IMG/VR virus record: IMGVR_UViG_3300006428_000005
Coordinates: 1-34,653 of that record
Source of the DNA: a virus
Lineage: Duplodnaviria; Caudoviricetes
Strand: one strand, 5' to 3'
DNA length: 34,653 nucleotides
The notes below the pieces were generated by a model. It was not told where the DNA came from and ran no database searches. It worked only from the letters and a program-made list of their open reading frames with translations. The number at the start of each line of letters is the position of its first letter. The stretch's first letter is position 1. Position numbers and translations under genes: made by a program. Shown here piece by piece: positions 29,647-32,986 of this stretch.

Positions 29647-29675
29647 GTCCGCCTCCTCCTATGGCGTTTAACCGA

Positions 29676-29876
29676 TTACACACAATCGGCAAAAAAAATC
29701 TTGTCCACCGTAGTGTTCAAGGCCTGTGCAAGTTTGACCAGCGTTTTGGTAGAAACTGCTCTTTTAGTACCGTTTTCAAGGGCGGATACCGTGCCGCGGC
29801 TGATGCCGCTTTTTTCGCAGAGTTCCTCCTGAGACATTTTGAGGGCGACCCTGACTTCCTTGATTCTGTACCCCAT
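29676..29876 (-). CDS. Cro-like XRE HTH regulator
   Basis: IKEVRVALKMSQEELCEKSGISRGTVSALENG; SD AAGGAGG; divergent from the repressor. Confidence 0.9.
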   Translation of the reverse strand: MGYRIKEVRVALKMSQEELCEKSGISRGTVSALENGTKRAVSTKTLVKLAQALNTTVDKIFFADCV

Positions 29877-29919
29877 GTAGTTACCTCCTTTCAAAATGTT
29901 TAATCGGCTGCACAGTCAC

Positions 29920-29948
29920 ATAGTACATCGCAAATTCTCACGTGTCAA
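29920..29948 (-). promoter_or_regulatory. Lytic (leftward) promoter
   Basis: Minus strand TTGACA, 17-bp spacer, TACTAT. Confidence 0.8.
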
Positions 29949-29990
29949 GAGGATTGCACAAACTGTGTTCAATTTATTTCACAAATACGA

Positions 29991-30020
29991 TTGACATAGC
30001 AAAGGGCAAGAATGTATAAT
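29991..30020 (+). promoter_or_regulatory. Repressor (rightward) promoter
   Basis: TTGACA, 18-bp spacer, TATAAT. Confidence 0.8.
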
Positions 30021-30049
30021 GGATTGAACGTAGCGAGGAGGAATTCAGT

Positions 30050-30448
30050 GTGGATTTGCGAAATTTTATAATTAAATACAGGGCTGAACACGGCCTTTCG
30101 CAGCGCCAGTTTTCTGAAGCGTGTGGTATGTCGAATGGTTATATATCAATGATTGAACGCGGTGAAAATCCAAAGACTAAGCTGCCTGTAACTCCGACGC
30201 TTACGGCCTTAAAGAAGATGGCTTCTGGTATGGGGATGACTCTGTCTGCGTTGCTTACAGAGGTTGATGATATGGATGTTAATCTAATCGATAATTCGTC
30301 CAAAAAAAAGACCGCCCTCAACATGGAGGGCGGTCTGATGAATGACGCTGATTCTGAAATTGTCAGCATTATTTTATCTCTGTCTCAGGATAAAAAGGCA
30401 GAGGCTCTTCGCTATCTTCGTTATCTTGCAAAGAGCGAAGATATGTAA
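30050..30448 (+). CDS. CI-like XRE repressor with short helical C-terminal domain (no S24 peptidase)
   Basis: GLSQRQFSEACGMSNGYISMIERG HTH; GTG start with GAGGAGG SD. Confidence 0.9.
   Translation: MDLRNFIIKYRAEHGLSQRQFSEACGMSNGYISMIERGENPKTKLPVTPTLTALKKMASGMGMTLSALLTEVDDMDVNLIDNSSKKKTALNMEGGLMNDADSEIVSIILSLSQDKKAEALRYLRYLAKSEDM
30302..30336 (-). terminator. Intrinsic terminator on the minus strand, inside the repressor gene
   Basis: Perfect 11-bp stem AGACCGCCCTC/GAGGGCGGTCT running into a U-tract on the minus strand (A8 at 30302-30309 on plus). Confidence 0.8.
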
Positions 30449-30524
30449 ATAGCGCACATTTACTGTCCGCCGGCACATCTTCGAGAAGGCGCAGTAGTTC
30501 CAGGACTTTCTTACTTGATGCCAT
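30369..30524 (-). CDS. 51-aa protein resembling the repressor C-terminal domain (SinI-like antirepressor candidate; not in the ORF track)
   Basis: MASSKKVLELLRLLEDVPADSKCALFTYLRSLQDNEDSEEPLPFYPETEIK*; SD AAAGGA; extended -10 upstream; terminator downstream. Confidence 0.75.
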   Translation of the reverse strand: MASSKKVLELLRLLEDVPADSKCALFTYLRSLQDNEDSEEPLPFYPETEIK

Positions 30525-30564
30525 ATTCGCCGATCCTTTCTTTTATTCTGCCGGCAGTGTAATT

Positions 30565-30593
30565 AGTGTACCACGGTTTTAGATTTCTTGCAG
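30565..30593 (-). promoter_or_regulatory. Putative extended -10 promoter for the 51-aa gene
   Basis: Minus strand CTGCAA, 17-bp spacer, TACACT with TGn extension. Confidence 0.5.
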
Positions 30594-30691
30594 CGAAAAG
30601 ATAATTAATCACTTTCGACTGACATCGACAAGTGCTATCCTGTATATGGAAACTCATGTGGCATTTGAAATTGACAGGGGAGGACTTCAAC

Positions 30692-30949
30692 ATGATTATT
30701 TCGACAGCATTTTCTATCGAAGGGAAAAGCATCAGCGAGTATCTCGGGGTTGTCTCTGCCGCCCAAGTCATGGTTATGCCGGGCGGGAACAAGGCCGTTC
30801 AGCGCGGCTGGCAGAACGGGGTAGAGGGAACCACGGAAATCATGAGGCAGCAGGCTGCGCAGCTCGGGGCCGATGCCGTGATTGCTGTACGTTATGAGCC
30901 GTTCGGGAGCAATATTTGCGCGACAGGAACGGCGGTTCGTCTTGAATGA
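30692..30949 (+). CDS. YbjQ/UPF0145-like protein (short, 85 aa)
   Basis: MIIST..SIEGKSISEYLGVV...AAQLGADAVIAVRYE...ATGTAV; SD GGAGG. Confidence 0.85.
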   Translation: MIISTAFSIEGKSISEYLGVVSAAQVMVMPGGNKAVQRGWQNGVEGTTEIMRQQAAQLGADAVIAVRYEPFGSNICATGTAVRLE

Positions 30950-31212
30950 GCGACAGACTTTCCGAGCTGGACCGAATCCTTCACTCTGGAGGGAGCGCCG
31001 TATTCACCGGAAATTCGCCAACAGCTGAACGGACGGTCATGATGGAGGTTTTTGAAGCTCTCGGTATGCGTGTTTCAGCAAGCGTGTCCGTAAAAACAGG
31101 CTGTCTCATAATTGGAACTGATGCGAAGCAGGAAAAGGTCGACAAGGCAGCATCGCTTGGGGTTCCAACATTCACAGAGGATGAGTTTTGGGCCGTCGTG
31201 CTGTCCAAATAA
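30946..31212 (+). CDS. Stand-alone BRCT domain protein
   Basis: AVFTG...R......EALG.RVSASVSVKT..LIIG.....KVDKA..LGVP..TEDEF, as in the NAD-ligase BRCT domain. Confidence 0.85.
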   Translation: MSDRLSELDRILHSGGSAVFTGNSPTAERTVMMEVFEALGMRVSASVSVKTGCLIIGTDAKQEKVDKAASLGVPTFTEDEFWAVVLSK

Positions 31213-31276: not shown

Positions 31277-32986
31277 TTGGCGGCAAAGAAAAAGCAGACC
31301 AAAAATCCGCAAGAGCAGGAGCCCGGCGTCATTTACGCTCGGTATTCCAGCCACGCGCAAAAGGATGCATCTATTGAGCAGCAGGTCGAGGAGTGCGAGA
31401 AATACGCTCGGGAAATCGGGCTACACATTGTAGGAACATACTCTGACCGCGCCATTTCCGGAAAGACCGATCGGCGTGCCGACTTCCAGCGGATGATGCG
31501 CGACGCCGAGAAAGGCAAATTCAAGTATGTCATCGCGTGGAAATCAAACCGCATGGGGCGGAATATGCTCCAGGCCATGATGAACGAAGCAAAGCTTCAG
31601 GACTTGGGAATCCGTGTCCTCTACACCGAGGAGGACTTCGACGACACGGCCGCCGGTCGCTTTGCGCTCCGCTCCATGATGAACGTCAACCAGTTTTACA
31701 GCGAAAATATGGCCGAAGACATCAAACGAGGTCTTTATGACAACGCCGCCAATTGCAAGGTGGCAAACGGCCACCTTCCATACGGGTATAAATCTGATGA
31801 AGATTTGAAATATGTGCTCGACGAACCACAGGCCGCTGTGGTACAGGAGATATATGCCCGCGTTTCTTGCGGAGAACCCATCGTCGATATCTATACTGAT
31901 TTGAACGGTCGTGGGCTGACGACTTCGCTAGGGAATCCGTGGGGCAGAAGCAGCTTCAACAAGCTGCTGTCGAACGAGCGGTACCTTGGGATCTATATTT
32001 ACGGAGATGTCCGCATTGAGGGTGGCGTTCCTCGAATCATCAGCGACGAGTTGTTCTACAAGGTGCAGGAGGTGTTAAAGACGAAAAAGAACGCTAGGGG
32101 TCGCCATCGAAACGATGCTGCTGATTATCTGCTTACCGGAAAGTTATATTGCGGTCATTGCAAAAGCCCCATGACCGGGATTTCCGGTACCAGCCGAACG
32201 GGCGCCTTGCATTACTATTATGTTTGCCAAAAGAAACGGCAGGAAAAGGATTGTGAGAAGAAGAACGTTAAGCGTGACGAAATTGAGTTGCAGCTTGCAA
32301 AGGCGATAAAGGAATACTGCCTGACCGATGAGCTAATCGAATGGTACGCCGACCAAACCGTTGGGTATTTTAAGCGGCAGTCTGAAACCGACCACATCAA
32401 AGGGCTGGAGGACGAGTTGGCCGACACGCAGCGCAGCATAAAGAACACGCTTAAAGCTATTGATGCCGGTATCATCACCGAAAGTACCAGAGCTCACCTT
32501 ATGGAGTTGGAGGCAAAGCAGTCGAAGCTCACAGGAATCATCTCCTCATCCAAAGCCGATATTGTGCAGGTCGACCGCGAGGACCTTATCAGCAGCATGG
32601 AAATGGCGAGGGACGGTGACATCCATGATAAGAAATACCAAGCACTCCTGTTTGACACCTTCCTCATACGTGTCTATTTGTACGACGACGATCTGGAACT
32701 CATATTCAGTTGCCCCGGCGTAAAGAACTCAATAAGAATCCCGCTGGATGCCTCAGTCGTAGAAAATGCAGAAGCAACAGCCACTTCAAAGGTTCGTTTA
32801 AGCTCCGCTTTGAGCCACCAGAAAATCCCTGTAACTGCAATGGTTACAGGGATTTTAATTTTATTGATAACACGCTTAAAAGCACATTTTATCCGAGAAC
32901 TTTATCAAAATACGCTGCAATTGAGTAATTGGTTGCAGCGTATTTTGATCGCTGACTCAATATTCTTTTTTAATGATAAAAAATGA
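31277..32986 (+). CDS. Large serine recombinase (integrase); ORF reads through the att junction
   Basis: YARYSS catalytic motif, recombinase domain, CGHC...YYVC...C zinc ribbon, coiled coil; TTG start with GGAGGTG. Confidence 0.96.
   Translation: MAAKKKQTKNPQEQEPGVIYARYSSHAQKDASIEQQVEECEKYAREIGLHIVGTYSDRAISGKTDRRADFQRMMRDAEKGKFKYVIAWKSNRMGRNMLQAMMNEAKLQDLGIRVLYTEEDFDDTAAGRFALRSMMNVNQFYSENMAEDIKRGLYDNAANCKVANGHLPYGYKSDEDLKYVLDEPQAAVVQEIYARVSCGEPIVDIYTDLNGRGLTTSLGNPWGRSSFNKLLSNERYLGIYIYGDVRIEGGVPRIISDELFYKVQEVLKTKKNARGRHRNDAADYLLTGKLYCGHCKSPMTGISGTSRTGALHYYYVCQKKRQEKDCEKKNVKRDEIELQLAKAIKEYCLTDELIEWYADQTVGYFKRQSETDHIKGLEDELADTQRSIKNTLKAIDAGIITESTRAHLMELEAKQSKLTGIISSSKADIVQVDREDLISSMEMARDGDIHDKKYQALLFDTFLIRVYLYDDDLELIFSCPGVKNSIRIPLDASVVENAEATATSKVRLSSALSHQKIPVTAMVTGILILLITRLKAHFIRELYQNTLQLSNWLQRILIADSIFFFNDKK
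32788..32825 (+). other. Putative prophage att junction resembling a tRNA 3' end
   Basis: AAAGGTTCG-N20-ACCAGAAAA, containing ...GAGCCACCA; composition changes after it. Confidence 0.7.
32822..32862. terminator. Bidirectional intrinsic terminator
   Basis: Perfect 14-bp inverted repeat AAAATCCCTGTAAC/GTTACAGGGATTTT followed by AT-rich sequence. Confidence 0.8.

Follow-up and report, generated by a model that had tools for sequence, protein, structure and literature searches.

LexA-controlled antirepressors (186 Tum, N15 AntC, Gifsy GfoA) and the ImmR/ImmA pair are other ways of inactivating phage repressors that cannot cleave themselves. In Bacillus subtilis, the sinI and sinR genes are adjacent and co-oriented. 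Their products share a two-helix hook with a common apolar pattern, as described in the structural work (PDB 1B0N; Colledge et al. 2011, PMC3163267). The decoy antirepressor design is already known in Bacillus phages: a recent preprint describes an extended arbitrium module, AimX-AimC-AimL, in phages phi106, phiW23, BMBtp14, Wbeta and Waukesha92, with a heterodimer, EMSA and induction documented for AimX and AimC (Kabel et al., bioRxiv 10.1101/2025.11.23.689978).

The window, which is the whole stretch of DNA analysed here (34,653 nucleotides), carries a repressor gene whose 3' end is overlapped by a small antisense gene. By analogy, this module would work like both AimX/AimC and SinI/SinR, yet it is a member of neither. 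AimX/AimC, compared by description rather than by sequence, is alike in its short helix-turn-helix (HTH) repressor without an autocleavage domain (a divergent cro-like gene is present here) and in a small helical ORF that converges on or overlaps the repressor 3' end. It differs in having aimR and aimP upstream, where a divergent cargo/integrase operon lies here. The present gene also differs in lacking a LexA box, in having its own promoter with a palindrome at +1 and Spo0A-like boxes, and in ending at a terminator within the linker of the repressor; some aimX RNAs, by contrast, extend across aimC according to the preprint. Here, moreover, the repressor tail appears to be copied at the sequence level, with a fixed overlap phase, and the hosts are of the Oscillospiraceae type.

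As in SinI/SinR, the small protein is predicted to repeat the two-helix hook of an XRE repressor, sharing its apolar pattern, and SinR is the top fold match of the CI model (1b0n_A, E 8e-4), largely through the HTH domain (TM 0.40, rmsd 15). SinI/SinR is a chromosomal biofilm switch, in contrast to the convergent, overlapping prophage genes described here. The sinI gene is under Spo0A control; here, Spo0A-like tandem boxes also overlap a divergent promoter. The SinI Pfam family does not match the window protein, and it is absent among the families listed (25 of 32) for 95 homologues. Unlike the LexA-controlled antirepressors, the small gene has no SOS box at its promoter, and unlike ImmR/ImmA, none of the 32 repressors that face such a gene has an M78 metalloprotease beside it. 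No description of the small-protein family was found in the open-access literature. What is new is the absence of aimR/aimP and of a LexA box, the apparently mobile cassette of repressor tail and antisense gene, the +1 palindrome, and the tandem Spo0A-like boxes in 21 of 46 promoters.

The locus and its repressor

The window is a partial temperate phage whose minus strand, read by eye, carries head and replication genes. Next come a cro-like HTH gene and an XRE repressor of 132 aa, and beyond these a pair of cargo genes and a serine integrase. The closest named relative, with a repressor 94% identical, lies in a genome from Oscillospiraceae; the prophage host is a gut-type, Oscillospiraceae-type member of the Clostridia. 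The principal features are:

29676-29876, minus strand: cro-like HTH gene, first of the early leftward operon
29897-30030: four 18-bp operator-like sites (at 29897, 29943, 29966 and 30013) across the divergent cI and cro promoters
30050-30448, plus strand: XRE-family, cI-like repressor of 132 aa, with an HTH, a flexible linker (residues 83-96) and a two-helix tail (99-110 and 113-128), and without an S24 domain
30692-31212, plus strand: variable cargo genes (YbjQ-like and BRCT-like), in the slot that holds ImmA in relatives
31277-32986, plus strand: large serine integrase

The predicted structure of CI has low confidence in linker residues 83-96 and two helices in the tail. Operator-like sites of 18 bp number three or four per locus in all 14 loci examined. 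A fifth, weaker site lies at the cro end (29665-29682). The cargo slot between repressor and integrase is highly variable across loci, where it includes YbjQ, BRCT, SWIM, SHOCT, Mrr, TM2 and Abi_2.

The antisense gene and its signals

A 51-aa ORF on the minus strand shares the final 80 nt of cI. The earlier note had read a complete minus-strand unit here (extended -10, Shine-Dalgarno, ORF and a terminator inside cI), and each element was found where it had been placed:

30588-30593, minus strand: weak -35 candidate, with a 17-nt spacer
30565-30573, minus strand: extended -10 of the predicted promoter
30534-30540, minus strand: Shine-Dalgarno of the small gene
30369-30524, minus strand: 51-aa small gene, a candidate decoy antirepressor with predicted helices at 4-15 and 19-33 and a disordered tail
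30413-30443: imperfect DNA dyad (arms 30413-30420 and 30436-30443) coding the final helix of each protein, one per strand
30302-30336, minus strand: intrinsic terminator of the small gene, inside the cI linker, with a U tract on the minus strand only

The terminator, with an 11-pair stem and U tract (30336-30309), was found by a terminator scan. The promoter is absent from the list of a consensus promoter scan; homologues have TGACA-like hexamers at the -35 position. Searches with the small protein gave no Pfam match at E <= 1 (SinI being among the Pfam families), no PHROG family and nothing below E 0.05 among PDB sequences. Its structure model had no fold match at E <= 0.001, look-alikes from the Atlas gave nothing usable, and the five Rfam matches all fall far under the gathering score.

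Conservation and coding evidence

Repressor-alignment searches returned 75, 44 and the best 80 of 239 loci; with two earlier loci and the window, these gave 199 complete repressors, or 76 clusters at 95% identity (the fragments L078 and L122 are left out of some counts). A blind rule for an antisense ORF that crosses the repressor stop was positive in 40 of the 76. Thirty-two of these positives are exactly the 32 top scorers on the tail profile, all in one overlap phase; the three type-2 tails score just 6-8 bits, the next repressor 4.1. The other eight positives (among 44 remaining clusters) are unrelated sequences in mixed phases. Conservation had been proposed as a check on the gene, and the antisense unit indeed recurs in 32 of the 76 repressor clusters. 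Among the 32 gene-bearing clusters, 28 have an extended -10 and 27 the minus-strand terminator; the figures for the others are 3 of 44 and none of 42.

Of the 142 member loci, a count in which some contigs appear twice, 141 keep an intact small ORF. Outside the overlap its dN/dS is 0.36 (12 disjoint pairs), compared with 1.08 and 1.79 for the other two antisense frames, and its profile matches 157 clusters at 50% identity, most of 47-53 aa. By these comparisons the small ORF is a conserved protein-coding gene under purifying selection. Because the overlap is an imperfect palindrome (the best dyad reaches 12.1 versus 10.9 of 21 matches, p 0.0002), it could also be read as a functionless relic, left when the 3' end of cI was duplicated in inverted orientation long ago. 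Against such an origin stand the low dN/dS, the conserved Shine-Dalgarno, promoter and terminator, the near-universal intactness of the ORF and the breadth of its family, which make a mere relic extremely improbable and already largely refute it.

In L166, the sole exception among the 142, the reading frame of the small ORF is lost close to the start, which may be an assembly error. L063 has a 47-aa convergent ORF with a Shine-Dalgarno, 48-192 nt downstream of the repressor stop and without overlap, that is absent in the close relative L067. L074 has a minus-strand extended -10 aimed at the repressor about 170 nt downstream of its stop, with the palindrome displaced and no ORF by the blind rule; it is possibly an antisense RNA or a decayed unit.

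Likeness of the small protein to the repressor tail

The earlier note aligned the small protein without gaps to the repressor C-terminus, with 9 of 29 residues identical. That alignment is reproducible (E 0.002; 1 of 2000 shuffles reached its score, p 0.0005), but its last two identities, E and D, do not count as independent, since YLRYLAKSED of cI and YLRSLQDNED of the ORF are one imperfect DNA palindrome read both ways. A likeness extending beyond the overlap had also been claimed; it does not reach significance for the window pair alone (residues 1-25, p 0.11) but is clear across the family. The non-overlap core (the first 15 residues) scores a mean BLOSUM of 15.7 against the tail, versus -7.8 +/- 1.5 when shuffled (31 pairs), and the score is negative in all eight slid registers, so that the likeness exists in register only. 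Hydrophobic profiles of core and tail correlate at r = 0.90, the profile-profile probability of small protein versus tail is 96%, and structure models of both give two helices each.

Tail class and small-protein class change together. Over the first 15 core residues, type 1 matches type 1 at 15.2 versus 9.9, and type 2 matches type 2 at 19.4 versus 11.1; the rows are related, so this between-class match represents few events. The co-variation of the ORF with cI C-termini that the earlier note had suggested looking for is thus present between tail classes but not pair by pair: within a class none was found (p 0.60-0.75; second test p 0.29-0.71). Cognate pairs that are no closer than non-cognate ones, and a cassette that moves between HTH lineages, would fit a decoy acting mainly in trans, in cross-induction or competition, on targets of the same tail class, be they repressors of other prophages or XRE regulators of the host. 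Such a role is very unlikely, given that the small gene is always locked to its own repressor, with which it shares coding DNA, and that the two classes change in step.

In three type-3 cassettes, in L232/L295 and in L292, the promoter and layout are alike and the small proteins are unlike the tail; mimicry is therefore not universal. Loci L209, L269 and L283, L232/L295 and L292 keep the promoter, palindrome and convergent layout, and possibly encode non-mimic antirepressors.

Exclusion with other induction routes

The claims that the window lacks ImmA and that its CI lacks an autocleavage domain both held: no M78 protease match was found in the window (part of the prophage) or in genome G001 (repressor 94% identical), and the S24 domain search on CI was negative. 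Across clusters, ImmA lies within 4 kb of none of the 32 gene-bearing repressors, compared with 7 of 44 others. Another 20 clusters have repressors of 210-295 aa, which are of S24 type by length, PF00717 being confirmed only on homologues of that size. Both ImmA and S24 tails are found on the same HTH family. Within this set, the small gene occurs only with two-helix-tail repressors that are ImmA-free and, by prediction, non-cleavable. Lacking both ImmA and S24, these repressors need an inducer. Eight further loci (L075, L070, L076, L088, L092, L096, L098 and L105) have short repressors with other helical tails, and neither S24, ImmA nor the small gene was found near them.

The small gene is probably a SinI/AimX-like decoy antirepressor that copies the two-helix tail of its repressor. 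The dominant-negative mimic of the earlier note gains comparative support from conservation, selection, in-register tail likeness and the exclusion of ImmA and S24, as well as from the two-helix models, the SinR fold match and the AimX/AimC precedent; binding and derepression are putative. In the proposed mechanism, CI would dimerise through its tail and bind the four operators, and the small protein would pair with that tail and break the repressor dimers. Loss of CI dimers would release the lytic cro operon and induce the prophage. Host Spo0A at upstream tandem boxes might trigger the small gene, which would perhaps be shut off at the +1 palindrome. For gut prophages of Clostridia that have neither a self-cleaving repressor nor ImmA, the module is a concrete candidate route to induction, and it would carry the decoy design of AimX and SinI outside Bacillus and arbitrium.

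The predicted RNA overlap

The predicted RNA of the small gene is complementary to the cI 3' end over about 147 nt (30302-30448), each of the two strands folds more stably than its shuffled versions (z -4.0 and -4.3), and no cI terminator was found on the plus strand. These features would suit antisense RNA or transcriptional interference as the main action, with the ORF secondary. That alternative is nevertheless quite unlikely: the protein is under purifying selection outside the overlap, and the predicted terminator in the linker, conserved in 27 of 32 clusters, stops the RNA some 250 nt before it would reach the start of cI. In AimX phages, start-to-stop and recoding tests gave antisense little role, according to the preprint (bioRxiv 10.1101/2025.11.23.689978). 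The second, antisense layer of control that had been proposed on top of the decoy finds little support, on both of the latter grounds. The overlap of this RNA with cI probably just follows from the coding dyad that the two genes share, and the terminator sets a limit to it.

A putatively mobile cassette and its palindrome

The predicted transcription start of the small gene coincides with a palindrome:

30548-30557: 10-bp palindrome, family consensus CTRYCGRYAG

The DNA pattern of -10, spacer and palindrome recurs at 81 viral loci. Twenty-six of them have the TG extension together with a 7-nt spacer, and in 23 of these (duplicates included) a small ORF separates the pattern from a repressor-like gene that it faces; of the remaining 55, 4 show this layout. 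A Pfam HTH is present in 13 of 19 facing genes scanned, and the HTH domains of pattern loci are identical to that of the window at only 5-17 of 80 residues. On the HTH tree, tail types 1 and 2 undergo five changes each, of which at least two are forced by well-supported branches (the alignment is short and the branches long). From this low HTH identity and the repeated changes of tail type, the tail, terminator, small gene and promoter appear to travel as one unit between unrelated HTH domains. The promoter with its palindrome and the linker terminator are DNA markers able to find such modules blind.

Two other readings of the palindrome were rejected. It is not a CI operator: CI-type sites are a different 18-mer, and the palindrome is common to HTHs with so few residues identical. 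Nor is it a general host promoter element, as 6 of 301 genomes match and 5 of these matches face an HTH gene.

Control of the small gene

LexA control was rejected for want of a box at the promoter: a search of 32 upstream regions for the host-type box (GAAC-N4-GTTT) yielded just two near-matches, which lie 85 nt and 93 nt upstream of the -10. No 18-bp operator-like site was found at the small gene's promoter. As regards aimR/aimP, the window has no minus-strand ORF of at least 200 aa ending within 900 nt upstream, and 21 of 32 loci are likewise without one; the remaining 11 have long minus-strand ORFs of unassigned family, which lie opposite plus-strand genes. Judged from these searches, neither a LexA box nor a CI operator nor arbitrium serves as the trigger. 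A riboswitch-like leader occluding the Shine-Dalgarno was also dismissed, the ribosome-binding site being unpaired at 0.53 versus 0.54 in shuffles (50 leaders, p 0.27).

The best lead for a trigger lies farther upstream:

30614-30630, minus strand: tandem Spo0A-box-like repeat (7+3+7), 60 nt upstream of the -10, overlapping the divergent cargo/integrase promoter

Of the 46 promoters, 21 have the tandem TGNCGAA-N3-TGNCGAA at position -59/-60 relative to the -10, compared with 0.7 in shuffles (the sequences are related). Single Spo0A-like boxes occupy the same zone in 26 of 48 (shuffled 4.5), and such boxes occur at 16 of 32 gene-bearing loci versus 3 of 42 others. When up to two mismatches are allowed, the window contains two sites, of which the tandem is one. 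In consensus and in its 3-bp spacing, the tandem agrees with Spo0A sites of phi29 and Nf, as given in PMC2731898. All five hosts checked have spo0A and spoIIGA; the tandem box lies upstream of spo0A in four and of spoIIGA in none, counts that carry no shuffle control. The tandem boxes may point to sporulation-linked control by host Spo0A; as they also overlap the -35 of the divergent promoter, either promoter could be the target and the effect could be positive or negative. If the Spo0A lead holds, prophage induction would be tied to host sporulation.

The small protein might instead be a constitutive buffer or modulator that binds the tail at a steady low level and sets a threshold or the CI oligomer state. 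Consistent with this are the near-consensus extended -10 in 28 of 32 clusters, the lack of a LexA box or CI operator and the absence of tandem boxes from 25 of the 46 promoters. It is unlikely, however, since the palindrome is kept across unrelated HTH types, the position-fixed upstream boxes look like regulated sites, and the gene-bearing repressors need an inducer.

For a regulated decoy, a fuller scheme can be drawn. At sinI, one 0A box activates and degenerate downstream sites repress, as related second-hand in PMC11264516; the +1 palindrome here is mostly two mismatches off a 0A box. A mobile cassette of tail plus decoy might read host sporulation, with Spo0A~P at the tandem boxes turning the decoy on and higher levels stopping it at the palindrome, to give an induction pulse at sporulation onset. 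The complete scheme is speculative and rather improbable. If true, it would amount to a phage version of the entire sinI logic and would let gut prophages be induced by a non-SOS route, in a system where a single DNA palindrome encodes the last helix of each protein.

The divergent cargo/integrase promoter is back-to-back with that of the small gene (window 30614-30660, L254 and L263), and its -35 sits between the two Spo0A-like boxes. Host genomes also contain stand-alone short genes for the Spo0A C-terminal domain (G001:C1:695554-695754 and G008:C44:122602-122901), which are possibly phage-borne.
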